From the IMG/VR virus record IMGVR_UViG_3300027719_000003, positions 1 through 64,000 of that record: DNA of 64,000 nucleotides. One strand, given 5' to 3'. Shown here piece after piece: positions 2,314-64,000 of the stretch. Numbering within the stretch: the stretch's first letter is position 1; each line of letters begins with the position of its first letter. This DNA comes from a virus. The notes under the pieces are model-generated. The model saw only the letters and a list, made by a program, of their open reading frames with translations, had not been told where the DNA came from and ran no database searches. Both the position numbers and the translations under genes were made by a program.

Positions 2314-2348
2314 TGTCCTAGTCCTCGTAGACGATGCTCGCATGAACT

Positions 2349-44501: not shown

Positions 44502-44985
44502 CGTTAGCTCTCCTTACCAGCTTTTCAAACGTATCCCACGCCATAATGACGAGGGTTTCTGATATCGCTTTCTTGTTATGAACTATCAACCAATCGGTAT
44601 CCTTGTACATATTGCTCTTAGCTTGATCTACCGTGTCCTTGAGGTTCAGGGATTCACATGCCTTGCACTCCACCGAGAAGGGGAAGCGCTTTACAGCCTC
44701 TCCCCGTAGGACAATATCAGTTCCGGCTTGTCCCATCTCCCGTGAATGGATATCGCAGGTATCATCAGACTGCTCATACGGGATGCCGGTGATATCAGAT
44801 ATCTTTCGGCACACCCACTGCTGTAGATTACGCCCCTTGGCCTTGGCGCTAGATGTAGTAATCTTCTTCTGGGTCTTCTGAAACTTATGAATCAGGGTAT
44901 CAAGGGCGGCACTGGGGGCAATCTCATTAAGGCTTTGAAGCATTTCTATATCGGCAGTATCTATTGTAACCCACTTCTTACTCAT
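44488..44985 (-). CDS. Holliday junction resolvase-like PD-(D/E)xK nuclease (T5 D14-like)
   Basis: AKAKGRNLQ...SREMGQAGTD...FPFSVECK. Confidence 0.8.
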   Translation of the reverse strand: MSKKWVTIDTADIEMLQSLNEIAPSAALDTLIHKFQKTQKKITTSSAKAKGRNLQQWVCRKISDITGIPYEQSDDTCDIHSREMGQAGTDIVLRGEAVKRFPFSVECKACESLNLKDTVDQAKSNMYKDTDWLIVHNKKAISETLVIMAWDTFEKLVRRANDGAS

Positions 44986-46087
44986 CCTCTACCCCGAACT
45001 TCTTGGGCCTTACCTCAGTGATACTATCCTCAATCTCTTCCCACGAGGCTATAACCCGTCGTTTCAGTTCCCCTTTGAGCTTATTTTCTTCCACGAAAGT
45101 GATAAGTTCCTCGCGGCTCATCGGCTCCTTGCCGTCTTCCCAAATGATAGACTTGGAGCTTTTCAGAAGCTCACCAGTCTTATCAGAACGGAGATTGAAC
45201 AGGAAGTCTATGTTCGCCGCCACATCATCCATGCCATACGTGAAATTGATCGGAATGAAACAGCTACGGAACGGGCGGGGGTGCCTAACCTTCTCAGCAG
45301 TGGTCTCAATCAGTACACCAATAGCACGGCCCTTACGCTCTTCCTTTTCCTTGAGCTTACTATAGATACGGGCAGTCTCATAGAACCCCACAGCACGTCC
45401 ACCACCGAGGCGATTCTTCTTGCCATACATACCGGCGTTAGCGTTGTCACGTTCCTGTGATATGATATAAAGTAGAGCGTTCTTTTCGGCTAACTTCGCA
45501 GATAGGCCACGGAACATCTCTTGGCTGAGGAATTTTGCGGCGGACATGTTGTAGGAACCTTCATCAAATTCCTTATCCTTGTCATACGCCGCATGACGCT
45601 TATCCTTGCGGGCTTCAAGCTCATCGGAACCCAACGCATCCAATGAGTCCAGAACATATATACCGCACTCATCTTCTTTCAGACTATCAAGGAACTTATT
45701 GACATCATATTCCCACTTCTCTACCGTCTGGGGCATCTCATCCCGGTTCATCTTGCTCGTAGGTATGATCTCAAAGCCATAGAGTCCTACACTGTCTATC
45801 GTGTTGCCGAATTCCACATCGGCATACTTCCACTTAAATTTGTCCTTATACTTATAGTAATTCGCCGCGATCATTTCTACGGCTTTAAATGTCTTCGTCG
45901 AACTAGAACCACCCCAGTCCCGTACTATAGTTCCGGCTTCATACCCCATGCCGTAGCCAGCCTTCTCCCCGCCACCCACGACAAGATCAAGCAAGGTACT
46001 TCCTGTGGAGAAATACAACCCACGCTTCGGCACCTCTATCTGCTTCTTAGCCAATATCGTCTCCTTTATACTTGCAAGGTTCAACAT
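44978..46087 (-). CDS. RecA/UvsX-like recombinase
   Basis: STGS..LD, GGSSSTKT P-loop, VLDSL, ISQER, GGRAVGFY. Confidence 0.88.
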   Translation of the reverse strand: MLNLASIKETILAKKQIEVPKRGLYFSTGSTLLDLVVGGGEKAGYGMGYEAGTIVRDWGGSSSTKTFKAVEMIAANYYKYKDKFKWKYADVEFGNTIDSVGLYGFEIIPTSKMNRDEMPQTVEKWEYDVNKFLDSLKEDECGIYVLDSLDALGSDELEARKDKRHAAYDKDKEFDEGSYNMSAAKFLSQEMFRGLSAKLAEKNALLYIISQERDNANAGMYGKKNRLGGGRAVGFYETARIYSKLKEKEERKGRAIGVLIETTAEKVRHPRPFRSCFIPINFTYGMDDVAANIDFLFNLRSDKTGELLKSSKSIIWEDGKEPMSREELITFVEENKLKGELKRRVIASWEEIEDSITEVRPKKFGVEDE

Positions 46088-46152
46088 ACCATCCTTTGAA
46101 ACAAAAACTGCACAGTAGCATACGACATGATACCGTGCAGTTCTATTGTTAC

Positions 46153-47193
46153 TTACTTAGCGGCGCGAGCACAATCCTTCCACTTTCCGGGAGGGCAATC
46201 GTTCTTGCACTCATCGAATTCGTCATTGTCCTTGCCGAACCTGTGACCATACGGGCAGGGATTTTCCTCCTTGTCCTTGGCGGGGGGTTCATCTTCATCG
46301 TCATCGCCCTTCTTGGCGCGAGTACGTGCAGGAGGGGTCTCATCTTCTTCTACCGCCTTACCCTTAGCGGTGTTGTCAAAAGGGATATCGTCCTCGTCGT
46401 CATCCTTGGCAGAGCGGCGAGGGGCTTCCTCATCTTTCTTCGACCTAGCGGGAGCCTCGTCCTCATCGTCATCCGAGCCGTTCATAATCTCCATCATTTC
46501 GGCGGGCGTATACAGGATCATAAGCTCATCGAAAGAGATAGCGTTCGCGGCGGCTTTCTTCACTGGCTTCTCACGATCAAGGAACTGGAAGTCCTTCGGC
46601 TCCTGTGTCACCTTCCCCATGAACTTATTCGGAGAGCCACGGAACTTGACGGTTTTACCCTTGTCCAGATCAGCGAACGGAATAATCGATTTGCCTTCAG
46701 AATTATACCGAGCAGACTCAATCAGTTCCTTCTCGAACTTGAAGTGGGACTGATCCAGTACCAGCACCTCATTGGGGTCATCGGCCAGCAAATCCCGCAC
46801 GTTGTACATCACACGGCGCTTAGCCCTGTATGCATCGTACTCGTCCTTCTTCCCGTCTTCTTTGTACTCTTCGGCCTGATCGCAACAAGGACAGGGCTTA
46901 CCATAAGTTTTCTTCAGGCAGATAATGTCCGTCTCGCTCGGGCCTATGTTCTTGTGTACCCACACATCGAAGACATAATCTTCATCTCCGATTTCAAGAA
47001 CGCCGCGTTTGACAAGGGGGTGATTCTTCGACTTCACCGCGAAGGGAAGAATATCGATTTTGTTCACACCCTCCTTGATCTTATAGAACTTCGGGCGCTC
47101 ATCCAGCTTCGTCCAATCAAGGATGCCATTGCGGGAAGAACCGCCGTCATTCCGGCTATCATACGACTCGCTGTACCTCTTATCCATACCCAT
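46153..47193 (-). CDS. single-stranded DNA-binding protein (gp32-like)
   Basis: H...ICLKKTYGKPCPCC zinc motif; acidic tail with DDIPF. Confidence 0.78.
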   Translation of the reverse strand: MGMDKRYSESYDSRNDGGSSRNGILDWTKLDERPKFYKIKEGVNKIDILPFAVKSKNHPLVKRGVLEIGDEDYVFDVWVHKNIGPSETDIICLKKTYGKPCPCCDQAEEYKEDGKKDEYDAYRAKRRVMYNVRDLLADDPNEVLVLDQSHFKFEKELIESARYNSEGKSIIPFADLDKGKTVKFRGSPNKFMGKVTQEPKDFQFLDREKPVKKAAANAISFDELMILYTPAEMMEIMNGSDDDEDEAPARSKKDEEAPRRSAKDDDEDDIPFDNTAKGKAVEEDETPPARTRAKKGDDDEDEPPAKDKEENPCPYGHRFGKDNDEFDECKNDCPPGKWKDCARAAK

Positions 47194-47195
47194 AC

Positions 47196-47660
47196 TTACT
47201 CATCCCTTCCTTTCTTCTCGTTGAGGCCCCTACGAACCTCATCGCTTCCATCCTTGCGGACACCGTTATAGTAGTCCTTGCTCCACATAGAAACCAGATT
47301 ATCAAGCATCCCCTTGCGATGGTCTAGGGCAGTCGTAGCCGCATAGAGGATGTCCACCTTAGCCTGAGCCTTACGAAGCGCTTCACGGGCCGTCAGCACC
47401 TCGGTATCCTGCACCAGCAGGGCGGTAACGACAGCTTCCGTTACCTTCATATCATCCGGGGGATTCCGGCGTATATATATCTCACGCTGGCCGAGTATAA
47501 GCTCTAGCTTGTCCTTGCACGCATCCCGCTCGGCCCTCGCATTGGCCTGTTCCTCGGCGTAGAAATGGTAGAGACTCGGCTGAAGTTCACAATCCTCATC
47601 GAGCTGGAAACGGTTGATCTTTACATCTTCCGCGAAATCGTCACCAAACGTAATGCTCAT
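47196..47660 (-). CDS. recombination mediator (UvsY-like)
   Basis: Helical; KVTEAVV...ALDHRKGML pattern; adjacent to SSB and RecA. Confidence 0.65.
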   Translation of the reverse strand: MSITFGDDFAEDVKINRFQLDEDCELQPSLYHFYAEEQANARAERDACKDKLELILGQREIYIRRNPPDDMKVTEAVVTALLVQDTEVLTAREALRKAQAKVDILYAATTALDHRKGMLDNLVSMWSKDYYNGVRKDGSDEVRRGLNEKKGRDE

Positions 47661-47663
47661 ATA

Positions 47664-47861
47664 CTACCTCTCATTGAGATCCCAGATAATAAGTATGACT
47701 ATCAGAAATAGTATACCCAGTATGGTCGAGAAGATAAGGGGGCTAAGTACCCAGAACCACGACCAGTGTATGATGCCTCCCAGTTTAAGGCCAATGAACA
47801 GAACAGTAAGCAGTCCTGAAAAACCAATGCCCCCTGTGGAGACTTGCCTAGAATCGCTCAT
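47664..47861 (-). CDS. small membrane protein
   Basis: GGIGFSGLLTVLFIGLKLGGIIHWSWFWVLSP motif. Confidence 0.75.
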   Translation of the reverse strand: MSDSRQVSTGGIGFSGLLTVLFIGLKLGGIIHWSWFWVLSPLIFSTILGILFLIVILIIWDLNER

Positions 47862-48139
47862 TCATCCTCCTCCATGTAATCGTCATCATCATAATCGAGG
47901 AAGTCAGCATCGTACTCATCCTCGATTTCCGCATCCAACGCTCGCCGCTCCTCTTCGGGGTCAAAGCAATCGGCACATACCATACTCGCTACCCCCCATC
48001 CATCTGCCTCAAGGGCCTCCTCTATTGCTTGTTCTATCGACATAGGGTTAATACCACTAAACGATACCATATGTTTCACACCACACCGTGAGCACTCTAC
48101 CGGGGCTTCCCCTTCAAAGCAATACCGTTCTGGAATCAT
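47858..48139 (-). CDS. hypothetical Zn-binding acidic protein
   Basis: CxxC...CxxC, acidic tail. Confidence 0.6.
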   Translation of the reverse strand: MIPERYCFEGEAPVECSRCGVKHMVSFSGINPMSIEQAIEEALEADGWGVASMVCADCFDPEEERRALDAEIEDEYDADFLDYDDDDYMEEDE

Positions 48140-49278
48140 TATAGCCCCCACTGAAGAAGATATGAAGGAGAGACAACCTTTAGCGAAAAACGTTTCCCAT
48201 TCATCTTAGAAACACCATACGGTTTATTGTCCAGAGACCGCACCACAATACCCTCATTAAAGGTATCAGGATTGAATCGGTTCTTAGTAGTGGCATACTT
48301 TATCCACTCATCTACTGTCGTTCCTATAGCACCTATCGTCGTATTGGATTCAAGTTCATCTATATACTGAAGCGCTTCAGGATTGCCAAGGAGAGAATGG
48401 AAGCTCTCTACGGCGAATCGAAGTTCGTTAGGATTCAAATACTCTCGCTGTACCATGTCCCACATACCATAGACAAATAGAACGGGTCTTTCTAGTTTGT
48501 ATTTATTGCCCTGTATTCCCGGCCCACAAAGTTCACCCTGAAGAGCGAAGTCCTTTAGCTTCATAGACTTCAGGAACTTCTCGGTAAACCCAATCTCCTT
48601 GATGATGTTCCAGAACGCATTATCCTTATACGTCGGAAACCAAACATTCCGGGAACACACAGACAACTTGCCCTTATGCCAGATCATCGTCAGAGAGGAG
48701 CCATCCATCTTCTGCGTAATGGAAATCGGCAAGTCCTTGTACGTCTCAAGAAAATTAGGGCCGAAAGCCTGTAGTCGTGTCTCATCCGTCTTCGGAACAA
48801 GATGAGTGGGGAATGAGTACCCGCCGCCGCCTCTGACCTTTCTTAGTATGAGATCACGAACAAACGGAATCCTCACTAGAATGTAGAACCACCACGGACG
48901 CTTTTTAGGCTGAGTAGACTGCCCTACAATCTCTTCAGGATCGTACTTGGTGACGCCTAGTTTCTTTGATACATCCTGTCCTTCAGCTACACGCTTCAGT
49001 TCGGGGAAGGCAGACAATGGCATAAAGAGTCCCTGTGAGGTAACTCCACGTAACTTTATTGTCCTAATTCTAAACTTGCGCTCCTTGAGGAATTCAAACG
49101 CCGGAGTGTTGGGGACAATGCTATCAATCTCAATATAGACACCAAGATCGCCTACCTTGAACTCGTCGCGTTTCACGACACATTCCCACCCAAGAATCGT
49201 AGCCTTCTCTATCTTGTCTGCCCCATCGATAGGGCTAAGGGCTACACATTTTTGAATACTCGCCATTTGTCTATCCAT
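48139..49278 (-). CDS. ATP-dependent RNA ligase (DRB0094-like)
   Basis: PIDGADKIE N-domain, KTDETR, KMDGSS, QGELCGPGIQGN, EGIV, K motifs. Confidence 0.9.
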   Translation of the reverse strand: MDRQMASIQKCVALSPIDGADKIEKATILGWECVVKRDEFKVGDLGVYIEIDSIVPNTPAFEFLKERKFRIRTIKLRGVTSQGLFMPLSAFPELKRVAEGQDVSKKLGVTKYDPEEIVGQSTQPKKRPWWFYILVRIPFVRDLILRKVRGGGGYSFPTHLVPKTDETRLQAFGPNFLETYKDLPISITQKMDGSSLTMIWHKGKLSVCSRNVWFPTYKDNAFWNIIKEIGFTEKFLKSMKLKDFALQGELCGPGIQGNKYKLERPVLFVYGMWDMVQREYLNPNELRFAVESFHSLLGNPEALQYIDELESNTTIGAIGTTVDEWIKYATTKNRFNPDTFNEGIVVRSLDNKPYGVSKMNGKRFSLKVVSPSYLLQWGL

Positions 49279-49289
49279 ACATTACCTCC

Positions 49290-50192
49290 TTATAACATAC
49301 ATGAATCATAGCACGCTTTGACCAATCCCGCCTTACCACTTGTGTAAAAGGGTTCACTAAAATATCCGATAAACGAAGCGATCCGTCTATCCGCTTTCCT
49401 TAGTAACACACTAGTCATATATCCAAGCACTGCGTATCGAATGGACTCCCAATCGGTAGTCTCCAAAGCAGATATTATTGCAGACACTTCCTTCCATCGA
49501 GGCTTATCCTCCATAAGTATTCGGCACAGATTGATTGCGGCTGAACTAGCTACATCAGCTTCTATCGCCTCTAGTGCCTCCTCTTCCGTAAGCCCTATCA
49601 CCTTTTCCAGCAGAACAAGTGCCCTCCTTGGTGAACCTTCAGCCTTAGTAATAAGCGATTCTAACACATCAATCGAAACTTTTTTCTCTTCCGCGTTCAG
49701 TACACGTCGGCACAATATAAGCAACTCGTCCTCGGACAACGGCTTGAACTTTACCTCAGTGCATCTTGAGCGGATAGCAGAGATAATCTTTGTCGGTTCA
49801 GAGCTACAAAGAATGAAGTACACATTCTCAGGAGTATCTTCCAGAATCTTGAGCATCGCATTCTGGAAGTCATTAGAGGCTTTATGCACCTCATCCAAGA
49901 TGTATACGAGAGGGGCCGTTACAACGTATTTGGTATCATCGATAATGTTACGGGCGGTTTCAATACCACGATTATCAGCAGAATTGATTTCTATGATTGT
50001 ATCGGATTTTACGAAACTTGTCAATACCCTCGCCATAGAAGTTTTACCAGTTCCAGCAGGGCCGGAAAAAAGGTATACTCGTACCGGATTAGGCTTACTC
50101 AGATTTTGCTTTAATGATTTTATCTCGGAAGCATTACCTACGAATTCCTCAAACGTCGTCGGTCGGTATTTGTTGTATAGACTCACTAGCAC
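49290..50192 (-). CDS. clamp loader / DNA pol III gamma-tau-like AAA+ ATPase
   Basis: KYRP.TF, GPAGTGKT, DEVH, SRC. Confidence 0.92.
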   Translation of the reverse strand: MLVSLYNKYRPTTFEEFVGNASEIKSLKQNLSKPNPVRVYLFSGPAGTGKTSMARVLTSFVKSDTIIEINSADNRGIETARNIIDDTKYVVTAPLVYILDEVHKASNDFQNAMLKILEDTPENVYFILCSSEPTKIISAIRSRCTEVKFKPLSEDELLILCRRVLNAEEKKVSIDVLESLITKAEGSPRRALVLLEKVIGLTEEEALEAIEADVASSAAINLCRILMEDKPRWKEVSAIISALETTDWESIRYAVLGYMTSVLLRKADRRIASFIGYFSEPFYTSGKAGLVKACYDSCML

Positions 50193-50808
50193 CTCCTACA
50201 GATGAATAGAATTTCATACGGTCTTCTAACTCCATACCTCTATATTCTTCCTCCATCCTATTCCAGTAACAGCATGTACGCTTACCTTCAGGGCATCCAC
50301 CACGATAAACGCAGGAGGGTACCATGCCATAATGCATTGCCCAAGCGAATTCAGCGGGGTCATCCTTAATCGTGTCCCCGAATAGCTCTCGGAATGCAAC
50401 CTTCACATTCATAGCCCAAGTTCTCGTCCACTTAGAGGCAAGGTGGCAAAGCCTTTGATGTGACATAGAAAGAAGAGCATCAGCAGGCCACGTACTTACA
50501 TAGATGCGGGGAGCAGAGGAGCTAGATGGCCTCGGCTCTCCTGTCCAATCAGGGCGCTTCGATTGCACGTAATGACGGGGATGCCCTTTCGTATGACGTA
50601 CAAGATGTGACACGACATCAGAGCGGCAGTTATCATCCGTTATGCGTATCCTCGCTTCGGCAAGGACAGAATGTTCAGCTATGACGGCCTCCATAGCGAA
50701 ACGCTCCATGTCCTTGGGTGACTGTAGGCTCAACTTGCCCTTAGTCGCCAAAGCGGCATAACGGATATCAGCCAGTGGTGAGGCGTTTAGAATCTCTAGT
50801 TTTAGCAT
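50149..50808 (-). CDS. ThyX/Thy1-like flavin-dependent thymidylate synthase (divergent)
   Basis: AEHSVL, HLVRH...VQSKR, QRLC, VPSCVYRGGCPE. Confidence 0.7.
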   Translation of the reverse strand: MLKLEILNASPLADIRYAALATKGKLSLQSPKDMERFAMEAVIAEHSVLAEARIRITDDNCRSDVVSHLVRHTKGHPRHYVQSKRPDWTGEPRPSSSSAPRIYVSTWPADALLSMSHQRLCHLASKWTRTWAMNVKVAFRELFGDTIKDDPAEFAWAMHYGMVPSCVYRGGCPEGKRTCCYWNRMEEEYRGMELEDRMKFYSSVGGASESIQQIPTDDV

Positions 50809-50817
50809 TATTCCTCC

Positions 50818-50997
50818 TTACTTAATGCACACCTTGGGCTTATAGAATATAGCCAACCCCGCAATGAATAGTCCAACCTGTATACAGAAGTTACGGAGCA
50901 GGGTCTCTGCTGTAGACGGAAGTAATGGGAGCATTATCCCAAGGGTAAACGTCGCACCCAGAGAAAAAACCAGCGATCGCCAACGATAATCGTTCAT
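50818..50997 (-). CDS. small membrane protein
   Basis: Two hydrophobic segments. Confidence 0.5.
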   Translation of the reverse strand: MNDYRWRSLVFSLGATFTLGIMLPLLPSTAETLLRNFCIQVGLFIAGLAIFYKPKVCIK

Positions 50998-51007
50998 AAA
51001 ATCATCC

Positions 51008-51283
51008 TTATCTTTTTTCAAACAAATGGAACACAAGAGTACCTGCTCTCATCTGAAACGTCCCTACGAATTCAGAAGCATCACAGACACAGGGGTGCCC
51101 AGTTCCATGAATGATAAAAGTTCGGTTAGTGGTGTCTGCTTCCGTGTCAACCAGTGCCCACATACATGGTATGCCGTCCTGCATCTGAACAGACAATACT
51201 TCCGCACCTTCTGGCATAGCGATTATCTGTTCATCCGTTATGGCAAGCGGGAACTTCCATATACTCTTCGTGATACTCTCCAT
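51008..51283 (-). CDS. conserved phage protein
   Basis: IWKFPL...MPEGAEVLSVQ...WALVD...GTGH...GTFQ...VFHLFE. Confidence 0.8.
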   Translation of the reverse strand: MESITKSIWKFPLAITDEQIIAMPEGAEVLSVQMQDGIPCMWALVDTEADTTNRTFIIHGTGHPCVCDASEFVGTFQMRAGTLVFHLFEKR

Positions 51284-51293
51284 AAAATCCTCC

Positions 51294-51500
51294 TTACTTT
51301 CGCTTCACCATGAAACGTTCTCCATCGAACCCATCCTTTCCTTGCTTACATGCTTCCTCAATTTGTAGTTCATAAAATTCAGTGGATTCTTGAAGTCGTG
51401 CTACTTGTTCCCTCAACTGCTGTAGCTGTCGAGAATATGTAGCAAGAGAGGCCGTCATATTCCTAAGACATTCTCGATGCCATTTTATGGACATTTTCAT
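51294..51500 (-). CDS. hypothetical coiled-coil protein
   Basis: AAGGAG RBS; promoter TTGACT-17-TACACT at 51519-51547. Confidence 0.65.
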   Translation of the reverse strand: MKMSIKWHRECLRNMTASLATYSRQLQQLREQVARLQESTEFYELQIEEACKQGKDGFDGERFMVKRK

Positions 51501-51558
51501 ATGATGCTCCTTATCAAGAGTGTACTACATTTTTACATAGAAGTCAAGTTATTATGAA

Positions 51559-51580
51559 TCAGGTTAAATCTGTGTTAGCC
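51559..51580 (-). mobile_element. truncated attC-like site ending cassette 3
   Basis: GGCTAAC...TTTAACCTGA; inverse core complementary to cassette start GTTAGCC at 51857-51863. Confidence 0.6.
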
Positions 51581-51786
51581 ACCCCATTGGAACTGCGTTT
51601 CAATCCCAACTGTTCCGGGTCTAGGTAAAACACGGGGCCACGAAAACCGCAAGCGCACCACACGTTTACTATTTGTCGCCCGTTTTCGTCCGTGTATCCT
51701 TCCGGCCCATGAAGCTCATGCCCACAATCTTTTGGAAGATGCGAAAACGGGCACTCGTACTGCGAATAATCGAAAATGTTTTTCAA
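51559..51786 (-). CDS. cassette 3 ORF, Cys/His-containing hypothetical protein
   Basis: TTG start after GGAGG; stop inside attC half-site. Confidence 0.65.
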   Translation of the reverse strand: MKNIFDYSQYECPFSHLPKDCGHELHGPEGYTDENGRQIVNVWCACGFRGPVFYLDPEQLGLKRSSNGVANTDLT

Positions 51787-51856
51787 GTGTTCCTCCAATG
51801 GGGCTTGGGCAGTAATCGGTATAAGCGGCCCCAAGCGCTTATACCGTGGACGATCT

Positions 51857-51918
51857 GGCTAACATTTGCTTAACCTGCAAGGCCGTTAGGACTTGTCAGG
51901 TTCAAGCTGTTATTGGGT
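51857..51918 (-). mobile_element. attC-like site (62 bp)
   Basis: ACCCAAT-AACAG-CTTGAACC-TGACAAG...CTTGCA-GGTTAAG-CAAAT-GTTAGCC. Confidence 0.8.
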
Positions 51919-52112
51919 GCTATGGGCGCTTCCGGTATATGCATCCAATGGGTGTATCCCTTAATAAGCATACACTCACGACGAAAATCATCATCCCAAG
52001 GCCCAGTGAAAGCGCCATGATCTGCCAGACGTTTTTTATGATGATCGTCCCATACGTCGAAACGCGTATTAAGCGGTGGAAGTTCTTCTGTGACGCTAAT
52101 CCATCCAGACAT
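51870..52112 (-). CDS. cassette 2 ORF, DUF551-like phage protein
   Basis: WISVTEELP...THWMHIPEAP; ATG after GGAGG; reads into attC. Confidence 0.8.
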   Translation of the reverse strand: MSGWISVTEELPPLNTRFDVWDDHHKKRLADHGAFTGPWDDDFRRECMLIKGYTHWMHIPEAPIAPNNSLNLTSPNGLAG

Positions 52113-52181
52113 AATTCCTCCTGTAATCTCGCCCGTAGCTTGGCGCGTGTCCGCGTAACTTGTTACGCGGCTAAAGCGTCC

Positions 52182-52231
52182 ATCCAACATTTGCTTAACC
52201 TGCTTTAGTCAGGTTGAAGCAGTTGTTAGGA
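52182..52231 (-). mobile_element. attC-like site (50 bp, minimal)
   Basis: R'' TCCTAAC, 5-bp spacer, L'' CTTCAACC (extra C), TG-A-C stem (extra A), loop TAAA, L' GGTTAAG, 5-bp spacer, R' GTTGGAT. Confidence 0.85.
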
Positions 52232-52519
52232 ACTATTGTATTTGTCACACAACGCTTTGATCTTTTCTGCGACTTCACGGAATCCATTTTCCTTTCCGCC
52301 GTATTCGCGATCAATAATAACCTGAGCCATTTCCGGCGCAAGAGCAATCAAGCGCATGTTTATTTCGCGCTGTTCGTCGTCGCCGTATCCTGTATAATCG
52401 TCTCCGCATACGTCGAGCGAGTACGCCATTCCCGGAGCTTTATCTGCCTCAACAAACGGCGCTAGACCGTGCGAACTTTCACGAATCTTCCACGGCCCTT
52501 TAGTCCACGGTGTTTTCAT
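52226..52519 (-). CDS. cassette 1 ORF, phage hypothetical protein
   Basis: TKGPW...NMRLIALAPE motif; TAA stop within R'' of attC. Confidence 0.75.
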   Translation of the reverse strand: MKTPWTKGPWKIRESSHGLAPFVEADKAPGMAYSLDVCGDDYTGYGDDEQREINMRLIALAPEMAQVIIDREYGGKENGFREVAEKIKALCDKYNSS

Positions 52520-52592
52520 GCTCTTTCTTCCTTTCGCGGATTGTCCGCGTATTGGCGTAGCCGATATGCGGCTGTCCGTCGTCCTAACAAGT

Positions 52593-52631
52593 ATTATACC
52601 TATCGGTATAACTACATCCAAAAATCCCTAT
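52593..52631 (-). promoter_or_regulatory. 39-bp repeated promoter/attI-like element, copy 2
   Basis: Identical to 2183-2221; 4 bp upstream of GTTAGGA core; a standard phage promoter (TTGACT-17-TATACT, 52644-52672) lies just upstream. Confidence 0.8.
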
Positions 52632-52676
52632 GTTCTTGCCATAAGTATACCGCATCTCCCTGCAAAAGTCAAGCAC

Positions 52677-53270
52677 TTATGGCAGTTCCTCCACCGATTT
52701 CACCATAGGAATTCCCACCCCTATAGCCACGGCTTCCTCCACCAAAGCACCCTTAGACTTATCATATCCCGGCAGAAGCAACACCCAGTCTGCATCCATC
52801 ATGGCCCGAATATCTTCCCGCATATAATCCTGCCACGTCTTCCATTTAGAGACGATAGACAGATCAAATGGGCTTATTGCCGTGTACCCCTTAGCCTCTA
52901 CCGCCTTTACCGCTTCAGCGAACGCTTCACGATTGTAGTTCACTATCCCCGTAATAGGGCCGGATATATACACCCGCTTCCCATTCACATGGCCTTGGTG
53001 ATCGAACCAGCCTATATAGTATAAACAGCATATAGCGTGGGCAATGTGGGGAAGACCAGACTCCCTATCGATGACTTGGCCCATAGCCCGCTTCCATAGA
53101 TGCCGGAAGGCGGCGGCTATATAGCGTAGCTTGGCGTTGGGCACCTTCTTCCAATTATCGGGGGAATACTTCTTAGCCCCGAACGTGAGCACCTTGGCTA
53201 CGTCCTCGTGCGGCTCTGCCGGGATGAGATCGTAGCGTAACTTGTCCTGATCGTATTTTACACCCTGCAT
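52677..53270 (-). CDS. dATP/dGTP diphosphohydrolase (DUF5664-like) fused to DUF4406-like domain
   Basis: GVKYDQDKLRYDLIP...GAKKY..DNW...ESGLPHIAHA; VYISGPITG...SKGA..E. Confidence 0.85.
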   Translation of the reverse strand: MQGVKYDQDKLRYDLIPAEPHEDVAKVLTFGAKKYSPDNWKKVPNAKLRYIAAAFRHLWKRAMGQVIDRESGLPHIAHAICCLYYIGWFDHQGHVNGKRVYISGPITGIVNYNREAFAEAVKAVEAKGYTAISPFDLSIVSKWKTWQDYMREDIRAMMDADWVLLLPGYDKSKGALVEEAVAIGVGIPMVKSVEELP

Positions 53271-53279
53271 GTTGCCTCC

Positions 53280-54224
53280 TTATTTATAGAACGGATACCA
53301 CGTAACGGTGAACTGAAGTATTTCCCCGTCACGAACTTTACCACTAATGATCCAGAAACCAGTATGGGCGGCGAGACGTTTATAACGCATAAAGCCAGAT
53401 TGTTTCTGGATACACCCCGTGCTGACGGCATGGATGTTGCGGTCAAACACGTAGAACGCCTTATGCGTATGGGATGCCAGTAACACCTTTGGCTTCTCTC
53501 CACCAGTAAAGGCTTCTATGATCTTCTGAACGCGGTAGCTATAGGCGTAGCTAGAAGAATCTTCACCATGCCACAACATAAATGTTGCGCCATTAACGGT
53601 GACAATGCCTTCGTGTATTCCAAGATAGGTAGCATGGGGCAATCGCAATGCCAAATCTTCCCCTATATCCATTCCTACACCAGACTTCGTGTTTCCCCAC
53701 AGATCGTGATTTCCGATAATAAAATATAACGGAAGTTCCCATTGCTTCAAAAGTTCTACAGCCTTGTTTCTCTGTGCCGCATACCCTATTTCGGATAGCT
53801 CATATATCTGCCCCGGCCTTGTGCTCATCCCTTCCAGCACATCGCCCCCATGGAGCATAGCAGTACACCCCTGCTTCTTGCCCTCCTCCATAGCAGACAG
53901 CAGTAGTTTATCTTCAAAATAAATCGAACCTATATGCGTATCAGACAGTACAAGGAATTTGAAGTCTTCCCCCTCAAAAGTAATAATACCTTTTTCTCTC
54001 GGGCGCTTATCCATGTTCATAGTCAACAGGGTCTCTAGCTCACTATCGCTAAACTTATCCCTCACCCTACCAACAATGTCAGCGGTATCTCCGAACTTCT
54101 TCCTGTATTCCCGCTTGTACCTATTAAACGTTTCTTCAGGAATACCGTAGGTCTCAAGCGTCTTAGTGGTGCCGTTCGTAGCCGCTGACTCCACTATCTC
54201 TTTAATACGTGCTTCGCTCGTCAT
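53280..54224 (-). CDS. metallophosphoesterase
   Basis: SDTHIG, GDVLEG, GNHD, HG, SHTH. Confidence 0.88.
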   Translation of the reverse strand: MTSEARIKEIVESAATNGTTKTLETYGIPEETFNRYKREYRKKFGDTADIVGRVRDKFSDSELETLLTMNMDKRPREKGIITFEGEDFKFLVLSDTHIGSIYFEDKLLLSAMEEGKKQGCTAMLHGGDVLEGMSTRPGQIYELSEIGYAAQRNKAVELLKQWELPLYFIIGNHDLWGNTKSGVGMDIGEDLALRLPHATYLGIHEGIVTVNGATFMLWHGEDSSSYAYSYRVQKIIEAFTGGEKPKVLLASHTHKAFYVFDRNIHAVSTGCIQKQSGFMRYKRLAAHTGFWIISGKVRDGEILQFTVTWYPFYK

Positions 54225-54493
54225 CAGTCCTCCTTATTCTTAACGTACAAACACCGTAAGAAGCAATCCGTAGATCCGAATAAAATATCGTAACAATAAT
54301 ATGGTGGGCTAAATACTACTCGACGTTGTACATCTGTACACACCCCTTCTGTGCTACCATAGTAATCAGGGTATATTGCGCCGATTACATGTTTCCCTAT
54401 CCATTTAGATTTTTCTGCTTCAAGGGCGGATTTGGACATAAATACTTTAATAATCCATTTCTGTATATCCATCAAATACCATTGTATAGTCAT
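54224..54493 (-). CDS. hypothetical protein
   Basis: Overlapping start/stop coupling. Confidence 0.55.
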   Translation of the reverse strand: MTIQWYLMDIQKWIIKVFMSKSALEAEKSKWIGKHVIGAIYPDYYGSTEGVCTDVQRRVVFSPPYYCYDILFGSTDCFLRCLYVKNKED

Positions 54494-54672
54494 ACGTCCC
54501 CCTTCCTTACCTCGATCTCATTCCAATCTTTTTGATTAGCTAAAATAGTTGCACATGCATAACAAAGATGAACTGTTCGTTTTTTACCATTTTTTAATGT
54601 AAGAAGCAACTCACCCTTACTCTGCCAAAACCATACAAATTTTTTGCATATCTTACATACATGAAAAAACAT
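54490..54672 (-). CDS. small Zn-ribbon-like protein
   Basis: CKIC...CYAC; AAGGAG RBS. Confidence 0.55.
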   Translation of the reverse strand: MFFHVCKICKKFVWFWQSKGELLLTLKNGKKRTVHLCYACATILANQKDWNEIEVRKGDV

Positions 54673-54684
54673 CTTCTTGTCTCC

Positions 54685-55140
54685 TTATCTTCCCGTACTA
54701 CCAAACCCAGCCACACCGCGTACCGACGGCCCTAGCTCATCCACCTCTTCTATCCCCACTATATCCGGTAGCAGATACACAATACCTTGCGCTATCCGGT
54801 CGCCATGGTTTATTACATACGTTTCATTCCCATGGTTATAGAGCTTCACGCTAATGTCACCGCGAAAACCCATATCCACCACACCGGCGTTGGAAGCCTC
54901 TATCCCAGCCTTAAACGCTAGACCAGAACGGGATTGCACAATCAAGGCACAGCGGCTACCAGAAATTGGTTCCCATGCTATGCCCGTGGGAATAACAGCA
55001 CTACCACCCACGGGAATCTCTACCTACTGCTTATGCGCTGGTAGGCAAGCGTAGAGGTCTAGCCCTGCGTTCAATCCGTCACCGCCACCGAAAGACGGTA
55101 TGGTAGCACGGGGGTCAAGTTTTTTGAAGAGTAGTTTCAC
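54685..55140 (-). pseudogene. dut: trimeric dUTPase interrupted by in-frame TAG at 55024-55026
   Basis: GTG 55140 after AAGGAGG; MKLLFKKLDPRATIP...AGLDLYA...HKQ*VEIP...RSG...GVVDMGFRG...DRIAQ...RGVAGFGSTG. Confidence 0.85.
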
Positions 55141-55315
55141 TGGGCTGTGCCTCCTTAAATATACTTAGTCCTGTCTTTGTCTTTTTAACATAAAAGGTAG
55201 AATCATCTCGAAAAGTGTAGACACAATCTTTGTGTTCATTTTTTAACATGTCATCTATCATGGCGCTTATCTTTTCTGAATCATAGGACTCCATATTGTT
55301 AATAATTACTCGCAT
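55115..55315 (-). CDS. hypothetical protein
   Basis: AAGGAG RBS; fills gap between pol and dut. Confidence 0.55.
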   Translation of the reverse strand: MRVIINNMESYDSEKISAMIDDMLKNEHKDCVYTFRDDSTFYVKKTKTGLSIFKEAQPSETTLQKT

Positions 55316-58300
55316 CTGCATCTCCTTTCAGCGTTCCTGCTTCACTCATCTCTGCCCATGATCCATCGATCTCGGACTGCTCCTTTTCGATAGTCAGTGG
55401 TACGTTAATCCAGTCCCAATGCTCCCGTACCTTCTGCGTCCCATAATCCCAATACCAGTAATCAATCAAGTCCTGTTCACTTGGATGGGCGTCGAAAATA
55501 CAACTATCGTGAATCTCTCCAATGATCCTAGAGCGCTCCAGCCGCATGACCTTTTTATTGACTTGATTCATCGTCCATTGTAAAATATGGTACGAACTGC
55601 CTTGCACTGGTGTATTGAATGTATTATTTCTACTCATAGGCCCATAACACTTGAACCCCGTCTTCAGCTCGACATACCCGTGCTTCTGGTAAAATTTCCA
55701 TTGTGACTCACGCCATTCATTATGTACAGGAAAGCGGTCTTCCCACAGGATACGTTCTGCTTCCTGTATATGTCTCTCGAAATCATCGAAATTCTTTACA
55801 CCCTTGTCAAAAAGATGCTGGCGTAAATTATGTACCTCGGCGGTTTCCCACAAGTCCTTAGCAACCTGTTTGTAGAAAGAGCCATAGAACTCGGCAAAAA
55901 CAAATTGGCCCTTCACATCTCCACGTAATGCTTTTGTAACCTCCTCTGGTTTAAGCATGAAGCAATCGGCGGCAGAGTCTCGATGCATGTCGGTAGTAGG
56001 ATCGAGCAGATACTTAATAAGTGTCGGGTCTTTTGAGAACATGCAATTCCCGGAAACTTCCAAAGATTTGTAGTCCATTTCTACAATCCTATTACCTTTA
56101 GAGGGAGTTATGAACTCTCGCAGTAACTTTTTAGCGTTTTTGTCCCGCTTAGGTTGGTTTTGAACGTTTGGAGCGTTGGCAGAATTATGCACGCAAATCT
56201 CATTGGCGATAAAGTTATGCGTATCCTCTACTTCCAGATCATACACATCCACTGCATCAGGAAGGACTTCTACAGCATAAACTGTTCTTACGCCGTCTGC
56301 CAAATACTCATAAGGCAAAATGACTCCTCCTAGCACTAGTTGGAATTTCTTCTCCTTCAGAAGCCTCCCTGCCTCAATATAATCCCCATCATTTTTACGA
56401 ATCAAATGCTCTGGAGTTACATCGAGATGAATTTCATAAATGCCGTCCTCGTTATACCCTCCAATATAATGTAGCCGCACTACATTACGATGCCCAGTCT
56501 TTCCTGCCCACAGGACACGTTTATGTGTCATGGTGTACTTATCCGAATACGTTATAGCGTATGCGTTCTCTATATCCTCTACATTCTCTATACACACTTC
56601 CCTAACATTATTTCCATTAGAGTCGCATATCAGTACCTTACTCCCCCTAGCCACGCAAGACCTAAAAGTATCTACCCTATTGATATTAAAGTACGGATGA
56701 ATCTTCCCACCAATCACCTCAGTCTTGTACTGTGCTATATATGTATTCCGCATCTTGAACAGCTTACGATACGCCAATATATCCTTTATGATCGGCACAT
56801 CCAACTTCGCCAACGTCTCCTCATCCACGCTAGGCTTCTTGGCGTCGGTGTATTTTGTCGGTGTAAGCCCCATAATCTCATAGAGAAGTTTTGATAACTG
56901 TGGAGATGACTGATAATTAAACGTCCCATCTGTCCACTGTCCCAATAAGGGGCTTCCCATGATCTTCTGGTGCTGTACAAGCATCTGCGTGTCCAGTTCT
57001 TCCTGTACCTCCTGTAGCTTGTCAAGAGTGACATTGAACCCATTGGCCTGAGCAATCGTTAATGTCTGTGCCGACTCCATAAAGAATTCAAAACCTTTAC
57101 GCTGAAAGGCAGACATACGGGCAGACTGGCGATCAGCCAGCTTGAAGGTGTAGAGAGAATCCAAGGCACCATAGGTAAGTAAAGGTTCCATGGGGGCACG
57201 ATGTATCTGGTTGATAGCGTTGGCACCATGTAGTTTCTCCTCTGCGGCAGTTGCCTTGAGATATTCATCCACCTCATCATCATACCCAGAGTGGCCGAAT
57301 TCAGTATAGACCATGAACTTGAGGCCCGTAGGCTTTTGGTTACTCAGGCAGTGTTGAGCAAGCATCGTATCCCAATCCCAGTTCGCTACCCAATAGCCGC
57401 ATTGTACATACGTCCATAGCATCTCGAATGAAAGGTTCTGTGCTATTTTCTTGACATCTGAAAGCATAAGAGCCTTCCATGCGGCTTTGAACTTATCACT
57501 CGTAAAGAACGGGAATGAATAGGAAGCATAGCCATCGCTAATCGATACTGACCATATCTTCTGGCCTTCCCGGTGCGGCTTCCTTCCCGTGGTCTCATAG
57601 TCGAACGCCATACGCTTCCAGCTCATAGCCTGTTCAATCCACTCGATAGCCTTTGACTCATCCTGCGTGATGGCAGTCTGGTCTCTATAATCTATTAAAG
57701 ATACTGGCTGTAGATTAAAGGCTTTATAGAGATGATCTTTCCACATACCATAGAAGGCTATGTCTCGTTCATACCGTGGCTTTGATTCATTGCCATCATC
57801 ATACGACTTCCGCTCCATCATAGACGCTACAGACCAGATCGGCGTGAGCCATGTCTTATATTCCTGATCGGGAATATGTTCTCCTACAAAGGCAGAAAAC
57901 GCTAGTCCGGTAATACGTCCAGAAAGGCGTGGCTCAATAAGCGAATCAAAGCCGGTTTCACCAAGAAGAATGATAGACACCGGCTTCAGCTTATTGATAA
58001 GGCTAAGAAGCCTAGAACGACAAGCGCTGATCTCCGTGAAGTTCGGGGCACGATTCTTTGATGGGGCACAATTGATAGCCGTAGTGTAGTAGCAATCCTT
58101 CGCCATGTCAATACCAAGCTGACGAAGGGTATCATGGATGAAACAATACTCTAGGCCAGAACCAAGCTCCCCAGCGTCGTCTTCATCATAGGAAGGCCGA
58201 GTGCCAACGATAAGTACTTGCTTCTGGCCTTCCCCGGTGAAACGGAGCTTAGGGCTATGGCACCCCTCGTTCAGCCTACAATCTTCACACGACAAGGTAG

Positions 58301-58382
58301 AGCGTTTGACTGCTACCTTGGAGGACACCCGCTCATCGCCCCGAATGGTTGGGGCGTCCTCAAGTAAGTTAAAAAACCCCAA
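55299..58382 (-). CDS. family A DNA polymerase with N-terminal UDG-like domain, 3'-5' exonuclease and intein
   Basis: CEDC..C/NCAP...EISAC UDG family-4-like domain; FDYETTG exonuclease; PNVQN, MDYKSLE, EIHDS polymerase motifs. Confidence 0.93.
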   Translation of the reverse strand: MGFFNLLEDAPTIRGDERVSSKVAVKRSTLSCEDCRLNEGCHSPKLRFTGEGQKQVLIVGTRPSYDEDDAGELGSGLEYCFIHDTLRQLGIDMAKDCYYTTAINCAPSKNRAPNFTEISACRSRLLSLINKLKPVSIILLGETGFDSLIEPRLSGRITGLAFSAFVGEHIPDQEYKTWLTPIWSVASMMERKSYDDGNESKPRYERDIAFYGMWKDHLYKAFNLQPVSLIDYRDQTAITQDESKAIEWIEQAMSWKRMAFDYETTGRKPHREGQKIWSVSISDGYASYSFPFFTSDKFKAAWKALMLSDVKKIAQNLSFEMLWTYVQCGYWVANWDWDTMLAQHCLSNQKPTGLKFMVYTEFGHSGYDDEVDEYLKATAAEEKLHGANAINQIHRAPMEPLLTYGALDSLYTFKLADRQSARMSAFQRKGFEFFMESAQTLTIAQANGFNVTLDKLQEVQEELDTQMLVQHQKIMGSPLLGQWTDGTFNYQSSPQLSKLLYEIMGLTPTKYTDAKKPSVDEETLAKLDVPIIKDILAYRKLFKMRNTYIAQYKTEVIGGKIHPYFNINRVDTFRSCVARGSKVLICDSNGNNVREVCIENVEDIENAYAITYSDKYTMTHKRVLWAGKTGHRNVVRLHYIGGYNEDGIYEIHLDVTPEHLIRKNDGDYIEAGRLLKEKKFQLVLGGVILPYEYLADGVRTVYAVEVLPDAVDVYDLEVEDTHNFIANEICVHNSANAPNVQNQPKRDKNAKKLLREFITPSKGNRIVEMDYKSLEVSGNCMFSKDPTLIKYLLDPTTDMHRDSAADCFMLKPEEVTKALRGDVKGQFVFAEFYGSFYKQVAKDLWETAEVHNLRQHLFDKGVKNFDDFERHIQEAERILWEDRFPVHNEWRESQWKFYQKHGYVELKTGFKCYGPMSRNNTFNTPVQGSSYHILQWTMNQVNKKVMRLERSRIIGEIHDSCIFDAHPSEQDLIDYWYWDYGTQKVREHWDWINVPLTIEKEQSEIDGSWAEMSEAGTLKGDADASNY
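56184..56657 (-). mobile_element. mini-intein (158 aa, no endonuclease evident)
   Basis: CVARGSKV...VTPEH...VYDLEVEDTHNFIANEICVHN followed by Ser. Confidence 0.92.
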
Positions 58383-58392
58383 TCAGTCCTCC

Positions 58393-59160
58393 TTATGCTT
58401 CTTCTATCCGTTTCTTAGCGATCTCAAAGTAAGTATCGTCTTTTTCTATACCGATGAATCTTCTGTATAGGTTCTTGCAAGCTACTCCTGTACTGCCCGA
58501 ACCCATAGCATTGTCTAACACAATCTCGCCTTCAAGCGTGTAGGTCTTAATCAGGTATTCAAGAAGGGCTACTGGCTTTTGAGTTGGATGCACTTTTCCA
58601 CGTGCATCCCTAGCAAAGTATATAAGTTGTTTGGCTAATAGCTTATCTGGTTCGTAATCTCTACCATGATAATTCTGGGTTTCATCCATCACTGTCTCTG
58701 ACCAAGAATCCCCCATCACATCTTTCACATTTTTAGTAATCTTACTGGGATTTTTAGAAAGATGCCTACGGGATACCCCTGCTGGATTTATGGTTTTCTG
58801 TGAATTATACGTGGGCTGATGCGCATAAAACACACTTATAATTTCTATTATTTTTATGGGCATTTTATTACCAAAAAGAAAGTTTGCCCCTTTGTCTTTC
58901 TCCCAGTACCAGTCATAGCGGTAATCCTTTATATTACTCAGCCTCAAAGAACTTGAAAACGGCTCACTACCAAACAAAACTATAGCGCCATCGTTCTTAA
59001 TGATTCTCTTATATTGCTCCCATAGTGGCTCAAACGGGATAACCGCGTCCCACTTACATTTTGTAGTGCCATAAGGAAGATCACATAGAATCATATCGAC
59101 GCTTTTATCTGCTATGCTTTGCATTTCAACAAGACAGTCACCATGAATTAGTGTCGCCAT
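58393..59160 (-). CDS. DNA methyltransferase (N6-A/N4-C, beta class)
   Basis: CDLPYG, HPTQKP, DNAMGSGST. Confidence 0.92.
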   Translation of the reverse strand: MATLIHGDCLVEMQSIADKSVDMILCDLPYGTTKCKWDAVIPFEPLWEQYKRIIKNDGAIVLFGSEPFSSSLRLSNIKDYRYDWYWEKDKGANFLFGNKMPIKIIEIISVFYAHQPTYNSQKTINPAGVSRRHLSKNPSKITKNVKDVMGDSWSETVMDETQNYHGRDYEPDKLLAKQLIYFARDARGKVHPTQKPVALLEYLIKTYTLEGEIVLDNAMGSGSTGVACKNLYRRFIGIEKDDTYFEIAKKRIEEA

Positions 59161-59170
59161 TCCTACCTCC

Positions 59171-60208
59171 TTACTTCAACGTATTCAGCATCAACGTACT
59201 TCGTTCTCCATACAGCACCAGCATCAGATACTCATGTGTATCCCGCTGTATATGCTTCACACCCATCTTCGTACTCTTCTTGAGGCCATACAAGAACTGT
59301 GTATAGTCTACTTTGAGCGTCACCGGCTCTACATCCAACGGCTCATCAAACTCCACCAATTCCTCATAAGCATCAGAACCGCTATGCGTTTTCACCTCTA
59401 TACCTTCAGGAGATATCGTAATCTCTATCGGGTGTAAATTCTCTTCAGTAGCAGTAAATGGTGCCGCCCTGTTCGCCGCTTCGAGTAGCCCTACCGGGAT
59501 ATCAAAGTTCGGCACTTCTTCGATCTTACACATACCGTAGTACGTCCTTATAAGGTCAGTCTGGTACTGCTCATCATTCAAGCGCCTAAACGCCATCACA
59601 GTAGCACCATCAGTAATCCAGAGATGTGATTGTGATACACCATACGAGCTGAAGATATTCCCCGCTTTAATGATGACCTTGACACCAGAATCGTTAATCC
59701 AGAACCTCGGGGAATCCTTGGAAAGCTCCACGAAGTTTATCCTATTGCGATCAGTGGACATGGCTGAGAACCCATCGAACAGGATACCGGCAAAGGTAGT
59801 CTTGTTGCCGGGGATAAGGCACGATACGAAAGCATCGTAGTAATCTGACGGCAGATCAATCATAGGCGGCGGGGCCAAGTAGAGAACAGAATTCTTCGTT
59901 ACCGGGAACGTCTTGAGAGACGCCTTAGCCTTGCCACCCTTGAGTATAAGCACCGCATCCTTTAACTCTATGCTTACTTCCGGCACGGCGTAACGCTTGA
60001 GCGTCGTGAGAAGGTCATAGATGGAAACGCTTACCTCAAGCTCTTCAGAGAACTTGAATTTGGTTTTGATTGCTATGGTATCAGAGAATGTGTAGAGGTG
60101 GCCGTTGAAGGCTGTAACCCTATCACACCCGCTGATCTGCGTACTGGTAGAAGCCCCCGGCACTACAATCTCCAAAGCCGCTATTAGTTTTAGTCGATCT
60201 ACTTTCAT
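59171..60208 (-). CDS. DNA sliding clamp (beta-clamp-like)
   Basis: 345 aa; FAGILF...AMSTD.NRI pattern; clamp loader present. Confidence 0.7.
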   Translation of the reverse strand: MKVDRLKLIAALEIVVPGASTSTQISGCDRVTAFNGHLYTFSDTIAIKTKFKFSEELEVSVSIYDLLTTLKRYAVPEVSIELKDAVLILKGGKAKASLKTFPVTKNSVLYLAPPPMIDLPSDYYDAFVSCLIPGNKTTFAGILFDGFSAMSTDRNRINFVELSKDSPRFWINDSGVKVIIKAGNIFSSYGVSQSHLWITDGATVMAFRRLNDEQYQTDLIRTYYGMCKIEEVPNFDIPVGLLEAANRAAPFTATEENLHPIEITISPEGIEVKTHSGSDAYEELVEFDEPLDVEPVTLKVDYTQFLYGLKKSTKMGVKHIQRDTHEYLMLVLYGERSTLMLNTLK

Positions 60209-60399
60209 TCGTCATCCTCATCACAATCGTTATGGTGCTCTTCCTTCACTTCAACCGAAGTATCCCACTCTATCGCCGTGCTCACATCTAAGATACTACC
60301 ACAGTCAGGACACTCCAGTTCCTCATTGCTCAATTCAGTGTCGCCCCACATGGTATGGTCGCACACCGGGCACTCTATAGTCCAAGATGACATTATCAT
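60205..60399 (-). CDS. small Zn-ribbon protein
   Basis: CPVC...CPDC. Confidence 0.6.
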   Translation of the reverse strand: MIMSSWTIECPVCDHTMWGDTELSNEELECPDCGSILDVSTAIEWDTSVEVKEEHHNDCDEDDE

Positions 60400-60408
60400 A
60401 CCAACCTC

Positions 60409-60597: not shown

Positions 60598-60605
60598 GCT
60601 GGCTC

Positions 60606-62803: not shown

Positions 62804-62811
62804 GCATCCCC

Positions 62812-63926: not shown

Positions 63927-64000
63927 CCTTTTGGCAGTAGTGACACGACTACGCCCCTCTTCAAGTTCTGCGGACTCAACAAATGCACATACTCGATCTT

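Follow-up and report, generated by a model that had tools for sequence, protein, structure and literature searches.

A probable integron-type gene-cassette array without an integrase in a lytic-type phage

How does a phage that encodes no integron integrase come to carry a tandem row of small genes, each bounded by what look like integron recombination sites (attC)? Integrons are known as bacterial gene-capture devices, and published integrase-less attC clusters from phages are few. The question is raised by positions 51,559 to 52,631 of a 64,000-nucleotide stretch (the window) of the IMG/VR virus record IMGVR_UViG_3300027719_000003, in which an earlier note, made from the letters alone, had pointed to a cassette array inside a phage genome. 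The record is 73,585 bases long, with direct terminal repeats and a completeness rating of 100%, the window being its first 64 kb, and the phage is of the lytic (virulent) type. Here, I argue that the array is probably a genuine integron-type cassette array without integrase, namely a cluster of attC sites lacking integron integrase (CALIN) to which a candidate entry site is joined. The genes in question all lie on the minus strand of the window, and the parts of the array, in the order in which they are read, are the following:

52644-52672, minus strand: promoter-like site, TTGACT-17 nt-TATACT, agreeing at 10 of 12 consensus positions (a consensus match only) and kept in the related records L210 and L211
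52589-52631, minus strand: array start element, that is, a 39-base repeat (52593-52631) and a 4-base spacer before the first GTT
52520-52588, minus strand: core of cassette 1, GTTAGGA (52588-52582), and 5' leader with hairpins and a ribosome-binding site
52226-52519, minus strand: open reading frame (ORF) A, 97 amino acids, cargo of cassette 1; phrog_1273 (unknown function), E 1.1e-6; no Pfam family
52182-52231, minus strand: attC1, 50 bp, cores TCCTAAC / GTTGGAT, assigned by covariance model and fold
51870-52112, minus strand: ORF B, 80 amino acids, cargo of cassette 2; DUF551 (PF04448, E 1.4e-8); phrog_924
51857-51918, minus strand: attC2, 62 bp, upstream core ACCCAAT, downstream core GTTAGCC, assigned by covariance model and fold
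51559-51783, minus strand: ORF C, 74 amino acids, Cys/His-rich, cargo of cassette 3; no family matched
51559-51581, minus strand: terminal half site, core TGGCTAAC (51581-51574) and left arm only, after which the next promoter follows
51519-51547, minus strand: promoter-like site of the downstream backbone genes, TTGACT-17 nt-TACACT, a consensus match

The layout given in the earlier note proved correct when the sequence was re-read: there are three one-ORF modules in tandem, with the coordinates, the site lengths of 50 and 62 bp and the core pairs as described, and the stops fall within the sites, that of ORF A inside the core TCCTAAC (52231-52225), that of ORF B inside the right arm of attC2 and that of ORF C inside the left arm of the terminal half site. 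The start of ORF C, a TTG behind GGAGG, was chosen from the ribosome-binding site. The core TGGCTAAC of the half site is the exact complement of the start of cassette 3. Two complete attC sites 325 bp apart, together with one half site, make the array a CALIN, defined by at least two close attC sites and no integrase. The promoter-like site at 52644-52672 is a candidate driver of cassette transcription.

Are the palindromes attC sites? Several counts exclude a chance origin: in the window the arm pattern is present twice against 0.13 expected, and the 18-base right arm likewise twice against 0.05. The folds have z-scores of -3.9 and -4.4 for attC1 and of -4.5 and -4.9 for attC2 (two strands each), none of 200 shuffles being as good, and on the bottom strand the L arm bears an extra base (G in attC1, C in attC2) and there is an extra T as well. 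A covariance model trained on 23 attC sites of four Treponema genomes, all of them bacterial sites and two of the genomes having intI above the NCBIfam cut-off, matches attC1 at 52181-52233 (40.9 bits, E 1.4e-11, against 17.5 bits on the opposite strand) and attC2 at 51856-51917 (39.2 bits, E 6e-11, against 15 bits); a half site at a second locus, described below, scores 11.5 bits (E 0.76). The alignment of 114 viral sites was fitted to the model, a procedure that favours the structure; in it 96.4% of the main helix is paired, both sides vary at 16 of the 18 pairs, and the covariation score is 0.197, compared with 0.088 for shuffled alignments (none of 500 shuffles being equal) and 0.014-0.050 for slid ones. 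The AAC/GTT pairs are retained in 111-112 of 113 distinct viral sites. By every sequence test run, both full palindromes are thus attC sites, and the architecture first claimed for them (inverse cores, a bulged imperfect palindrome, strand asymmetry), together with the covariance-model match, was found. Rfam returned nothing at gathering scores in the whole window, and one chance-level match at E up to 1 in 51400-52750. No terminator-like site was called at either palindrome, so that a reading of these as terminators was rejected.

Integron crossover takes place between G and TT, as a result of which the first bases of a cassette complement its own upstream core. When each cassette start in the window is compared with its own downstream core, 7/7, 5/7 and 8/8 bases agree, and 8/8 in a methylase cassette at the second locus. 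The claim of complementary core pairs accordingly holds for cassettes 1 and 3 (7/7 and 8/8), while the upstream core of attC2, ACCCAAT, has two changes from the expected complement, as had been said; one of these puts AAT where the consensus for upstream cores, RYYYAAC (GTTRRRY for downstream ones), has an invariant AAC. The third site is only half a site. Among viral loci at large, at least four of five variable bases match in 62 of 78 unique consecutive cassettes (mean 4.03), compared with 10% of random pairs (mean 1.97) and 15 of 140 comparisons between the two cores of one site (mean 2.15) at the same level. The first site finder, with three changes per arm allowed, called 645 sites, many of them false; all 78 pairs with both cores were kept for the comparison and none was dropped. 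Treponema arrays have the same pattern of boundary complementarity, which, as far as sequence can tell, is what crossover at G|TT leaves behind when a cassette is circular.

A further question is whether the content of the array changes while its surroundings stay the same, and this had been set beforehand as a test of the cassette reading. Gene content is not invariant among the relatives, whose flanks are 85-98% identical and whose cassettes differ between the same boundaries. One relative, G011, is collinear with the phage over 38,551 aligned bases, mostly at 85-95% identity, and in L210 a flanking protein is 98% identical to that of the phage; the start junction and the truncated end are common to the phage, L210 and G011, whereas cassette content differs, with three cassettes in the phage, two different ones in L210 (none common with the phage) and six in G011 (read by eye). 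The DUF551 cassette of G011 is 81% identical to cassette 2, and the last cassette of its array is a methylase, 78% identical to the one at the second locus of the phage. Public sequencing runs were compared as contigs only, the uncovered parts in runs X2, X3 and X5 carrying no evidence. A contig of run X3 (depth 83) joins 51548 to 52586 with other content in between, and a joint of 52228 to 52593 in run X2 (side 25) may have another genome as its source. In run X1, the likely source sample, summed contig depth at the attC cores is ~1,000-1,500 against ~44 for the phage, contigs breaking there, and over 51844-52626 the attC cores and the leader of cassette 1 stand at a summed depth of ~400-1,500. 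Such depth shows only that the cores are repeated in the sample; it follows that other, more abundant DNA in the community contains the same frames of cores and leader. Neither excised circles nor minor array variants assignable to the phage were seen in the run X1 contigs.

How far does this cassette format extend? The 18-base right arm was found in 74 IMG/VR stretches, the phage-type full site in at least 120 metagenome stretches and the core of both arms in 117 bacterial genome stretches, counts which rest on patterns and on partial contigs. Comparison of the bacterial genome contigs covered 80 of the 117 stretches with an attC core, and among the matches listed 54 of 80 bear a spirochaete name, mostly Treponema. 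Integrase and polymerase searches covered 50 viral records drawn from the 74 site-bearing IMG/VR stretches. A homologue of the DNA polymerase of the phage occurs in five of the 50, and in one of the eight that are at least 90% complete; hence the cassette format spans unrelated phages. In the GenBank phage collection a distant search with 2.6 kb gave a single weak match of 92 bases, so that no cultured relative is known. Phage sites and Treponema chromosomal sites have different short spacers (AACT and AAAT in the former, ACCC and GAAT in the latter), and the loops of the phage sites are short and varied. By their sequence, the phage attC sites belong to the same dialect as the attC sites of spirochaete chromosomal integrons.

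What stands at the head of the array? The 23-base core of the start element has exactly two copies in the window, each just before a cassette start (0.00 expected), and a second copy of the whole 39-base element lies at 2183-2221, four bases before a GTT core, like the first. The element contains a palindrome over a TATAAT hexamer. Its second copy opens a locus whose parts are these:

1327-2221, minus strand: second locus, a single cassette, ~50 kb from the main array
2178-2171, minus strand: core GTTATACG, which opens the methylase cassette
2119-1328, minus strand: N6/N4 DNA methylase ORF (PF01555, E 4.8e-47)
1351-1344 and on to 1327, minus strand: exact complementary core CGTATAAC, then the left arm only, as the end of the second locus

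Elements of the same design, a ~30-base palindrome of core-like boxes followed after 3-5 bases by a cassette-type core, number 19 unique examples in 17 viral records, and a loose form of the motif is met at only 42 of the 23,322 GTTs in those viral loci. An attC right arm precedes 50 of 75 unique cassette starts, and about 16 of the other 25 show the start element (read by eye). When a profile of the 19 elements was run against 167,690 bases of integrase-adjacent bacterial DNA, the best match (E 4.2e-4) came on a Treponemataceae chromosome, 23-46 nt past the stop of intI, which is where attI is expected in a co-directional integron. The start element bears no clear likeness to the Treponema socranskii and G058 integron regions. 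It may be regarded as an attI-like candidate entry site. The word platform, used for the locus from the outset, suits this conserved element, which follows a promoter-like site and stands where an attI would be. The second start element is immediately preceded, at 2225-2330 (minus strand), by sequences resembling the 3' ends of tRNA genes.

The other end of the arrays is of a different kind. In a survey of viral loci L004-L075, L210 and L211 and of the window at 1327-1351 and 51559-51581, 98 unique strong left arms were counted, of which 78 belong to full sites, 16 lack a right arm and four have a right arm but no GTT core. In most cases the site breaks off directly behind the left stem, at the hairpin tip, and a ribosome-binding site or a promoter then follows. 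The truncated end of the main array is shared with L210 and L211. Nucleases of the Mre11/Rad50 type cut hairpins at the loop. The phage encodes a T4-like recombination set on the minus strand, at 37504-39515 and 44978-47193 (profile search), which comprises a RecA/UvsX-like protein (PF00154, E 2.6e-8), a gp32-like protein (25.8 bits, just below the cut-off), an Mre11-like phosphoesterase and a Rad50/SbcC-like ATPase; cutting by the latter two would explain breaks at the hairpin tip. Along the same line, once a cassette has been inserted at a genomic site its attC hairpin is easily lost by deletion, according to Loot et al. (bioRxiv 10.1101/2022.09.11.507474).

As to what the cassettes carry, those of the viral loci are small (median 338 bp). 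A Pfam search of 73 cassette ORFs left most without a match, and 43 PHROG families were matched. DUF551 is present in four of the 73 and N6/N4 methylase in three, while C5 methylase, Dam methylase, RtcB RNA ligase, PD-(D/E)XK nuclease, an AAA_33 kinase-like protein and a Lar restriction-alleviation protein are each found in one of 73. The cargo is phage-type and partly concerned with counter-defence, as with the DNA methylases. A second N6/N4 methylase of the phage, at 58393-59160 (minus strand), is a backbone gene without attC remnants, and its DNA is 70-78% identical to methylase genes beside attC in at least eight other viral loci.

The non-coding part of the cassettes is more constant than the genes. 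Eleven other viral loci (the loci named are L003, L008, L020, L032, L037, L038, L059, L064, L067 and L069) have the 69-base cassette 1 leader, made up of core, GA(C/T), hairpins and ribosome-binding site, at 90-100% identity, and the ORFs behind leaders of this type have no detected pairwise similarity; several of them end in Ser-Ser, encoded beside the common downstream core. Other leader clusters are likewise conserved in front of unrelated ORFs, and the chromosomal cassettes of Treponema and Treponemataceae open in the same format (core, GA(C/T), hairpin). Since the leader adjoins attC in a circular cassette, a conserved non-coding frame carries interchangeable ORFs.

Which recombinase, then, and in which host? 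The absence of a tyrosine recombinase from the window, remarked on at the start, extends to the whole genome, which is complete and in which no tyrosine recombinase (PF00589), serine recombinase or Y1 transposase was found. Of the two sources once proposed for the enzyme, an integrase encoded elsewhere in the genome falls away and a host IntI is the option left. The integrase model TIGR02249 responds (to ordinary tyrosine recombinases) in 14 of 14 control genomes. In bacteria the situation is different: the integron integrase of Treponema socranskii scores 483.7 bits on this model, in T. putidum the pieces of an integrase are jointly above the cut-off, and the Treponema arrays lie downstream of these integrase genes on the same strand. 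Three of five further core-bearing bacterial genomes have an integrase above the cut-off. One Treponemataceae chromosome has a long array on the integrase strand that includes one short phage-type site, the integrase-proximal site of another integrase-bearing genome has phage-type spacers, and a long-loop site on one phage contig matches a site of the Treponemataceae array just mentioned at 80% identity over 154 bases. Because no integrase occurs in any viral record examined and integrases do occur in bacteria with the same core, a host integron integrase acting in trans is the best inference, and homologous recombination of the phage's own may do part of the shuffling.

Under the explanation favoured here, a host integron integrase of this dialect would act in trans on phage DNA during infection, at a time when, given the UvsX-like, gp32-like and Mre11/Rad50-like replication proteins of the phage, single strands should be plentiful. 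Circular cassettes would be inserted by the integrase at the start element, downstream of a phage promoter, and removed again by excision between attC sites; phage homologous recombination would then use the attC cores of ~45 bases and the leaders as portable homology, so spreading and reshuffling cassettes among co-infecting phages, and loss of the right arm of the last site would fix the end of the array. A wider proposal is put forward tentatively and at something short of even confidence, namely that many unrelated uncultured phages have in common an integrase-less platform, consisting of a start site, attC sites of a single dialect and a few conserved non-coding frames of attC and leader, and that phage genes, largely for counter-defence, are loaded into these frames, the integrase being borrowed from the host.

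Several findings pull the other way. As for the sites themselves, the covariance model represents a single dialect, unlike the general IntegronFinder model, the pattern behind the boundary signature is loose and the 78 cassettes compared include some false sites, and the upstream core of attC2 is degenerate, with AAT replacing AAC. The third site is a half site, unusable by any integrase, and one truncated end is common to three related genomes, yet their last cassettes differ; as a half site is not foldable by an integrase, exchange of the last cassette needs another mechanism, that is, homologous recombination in or downstream of the left arm. At the other end, the profile-matched element of the Treponemataceae chromosome does not abut the first recognisable cassette there, and the tie to bacterial attI is weak. 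TIGR02249 had no match at E 0.001 or better in any of the 50 site-bearing viral records, eight of which are at least 90% complete, and a tblastn search with seven long ORFs of four integrase loci, which included the integrases, found nothing at E 1e-5 in the viral loci and in the 120 metagenome stretches (448,425 bases), most of the latter being short, which makes that negative a weak one. When 44001-64000 was searched against 201 Treponemataceae genomes as possible hosts, 29 matched, nearly all at attC, leader or methylase parts. Three weak matches fall on backbone positions (E 1e-4 to 9e-4), no prophage or spacer-like match was seen in the 201 genomes, and the strong match to G154 contig 13 may be to a phage-like contig that is also among the viral records.

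Much of this could be accommodated if the array were a fossil, its cassettes having been made elsewhere by integron integrases and then moved in phages by homologous recombination only, for which the conserved attC cores and leaders would supply short portable homology, with no site-specific recombination on phage DNA. The phage is equipped for it with its RecA/UvsX-like, gp32-like, Mre11-like and Rad50/SbcC-like proteins, the relatives have a common truncated end but a different last cassette, leaders are common to unrelated ORFs, and integrase is in no viral record examined; moreover the boundary signature, once made, would survive recombination in the cores, as both cores travel with the ORF. 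I nevertheless consider this unlikely. The cargo is of phage type (DUF551, methylases, Lar, RtcB), which argues that the making or loading of cassettes takes place where an integrase has access to phage genes; in unrelated phages the distance from the start element to the first cassette is always the same, as for a recombination site, and ~20 bases of homology per arm would be short.

Should the enzyme rather be phage-encoded and belong to a recombinase family not yet recognised, acting on sites of integron type, the want of an integron integrase in the viral records examined would sit well with a system that is widespread and has a phage-specific site variant. Such an enzyme is very improbable, for the complete genome of the phage contains no tyrosine recombinase, serine recombinase or Y1 transposase, the DNA polymerase is common to only 5/50 records, so that no common backbone gene is evident, and bacterial arrays with the same core adjoin true integron integrases. 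That the palindromes are regulatory hairpins (terminators, processing or operator sites) whose likeness to attC is a coincidence is scarcely credible: their position between genes, overlapping stop codons, would suit such a role, and weak terminator activity has been ascribed to attC sites (Qi et al. 2023), but the boundary complementarity, the identity of the cores to integrase-adjacent attC and the cassette-wise differences would all be left unexplained. The integron-type array described above is in my judgement the likely explanation.

How does such an array compare with known systems? The promoter-stem-loop (PeSL) elements of T4-type phages are mobile regulatory cassettes in which each repeat unit has an early promoter next to a stem-loop. 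As there, small accessory genes have short conserved repeats in the spacers on either side, through which homologous recombination could shuffle them in a phage with T4-like recombination proteins; unlike them, neither attC has a promoter-like site inside it, promoter-like sites lying only outside the array, and the phage sites have integron cores, the G|TT signature and a match to integrase-adjacent bacterial sites. With Treponema integrons, the first chromosomal one of which was reportedly described in T. denticola, the phage array has in common the L-box and stem core, the protruding base and the format of cassette starts. It differs from them in having other spacers, short variable loops, small cassettes, phage-type cargo and no integrase. 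The Treponema integrase is transcribed towards the cassettes, i.e. co-directionally, as stated by Wu, Doak and Ye 2013 (BMC Evol Biol, PMC3607928), and a co-directional integrase of this type was found here in the bacterial genomes G001, G002, G056 and G058.

In phages, the closest parallel is the report of 17 integrase-less attC clusters among 10,705 phage genomes (Qi et al. 2023), figures that agree with the opening assertion that such arrays are rarely reported. In that study, IntI1 recombined five of six attC sites from three virulent phages. The present array resembles those clusters in its co-oriented, attC-bounded cassettes in a phage without integrase, in the DNA methylases among the cargo and in the inverted GTTRRRY motifs at the array boundary, which were noted there too. 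It departs from them in that the phage sites form one homogeneous dialect, common to spirochaete chromosomal integrons and at least 74 viral stretches, and in the presence of a start element with a promoter-like site, two loci in the one genome, systematically truncated ends and conserved leaders, all known from sequence alone. There is also a parallel with insertion at attG: an integrase can insert cassettes at GWT outside att sites, where they are expressed if near a promoter, according to Loot et al. (bioRxiv 10.1101/2022.09.11.507474). In keeping with that description, the phage has a cassette at a GTT, away from any classical integron and close downstream of a resident promoter, and a later partial loss of the attC hairpin ('domestication'); whereas GWT is enough for attG, unrelated phages here have a 30-base palindromic element of common design before the junction, which looks like a dedicated site. 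Compared with the literature, three features appear to be new, namely the start element that the phages have in common, the conservation of the leaders and the truncation at the array ends. No description of this attC dialect in phages, of a common start element, of conserved leaders or of truncated ends was found in the literature, the supplementary cluster list of Qi et al. 2023 lying outside the comparison.

If the explanation is correct, host integrases would give phages access to a common stock of plug-in accessory genes, cassettes would be exchanged between phages and chromosomal integrons, and the attC dialect could act as a host marker for uncultured phages. Identical frames of leader and attC around unrelated ORFs also bear on the open question of how integron cassettes arise, and would offer a natural system in which cassette making can be read from the sequence.

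Beside the array, at 51008-51500, two small genes (DUF7352, 91 amino acids, and an ORF of 68 amino acids) are missing from L210 and L211, and in contigs of runs X2 and X3 four other letters replace 50824-51514; this is a variable module without attC sites. Lastly, the family A DNA polymerase of the phage (55299-58382, minus strand) has an N-terminal uracil-DNA-glycosylase-like domain and, at residues 700-733, a short match to an intein splicing domain (31.7 bits, below the cut-off). The polymerase frame counts 1236 amino acids in the relative G011 (C1:24094-27801) against 1027 in the phage, with the additional sequence of G011 placed between residues 677 and 699, which would suit an intein at that point.

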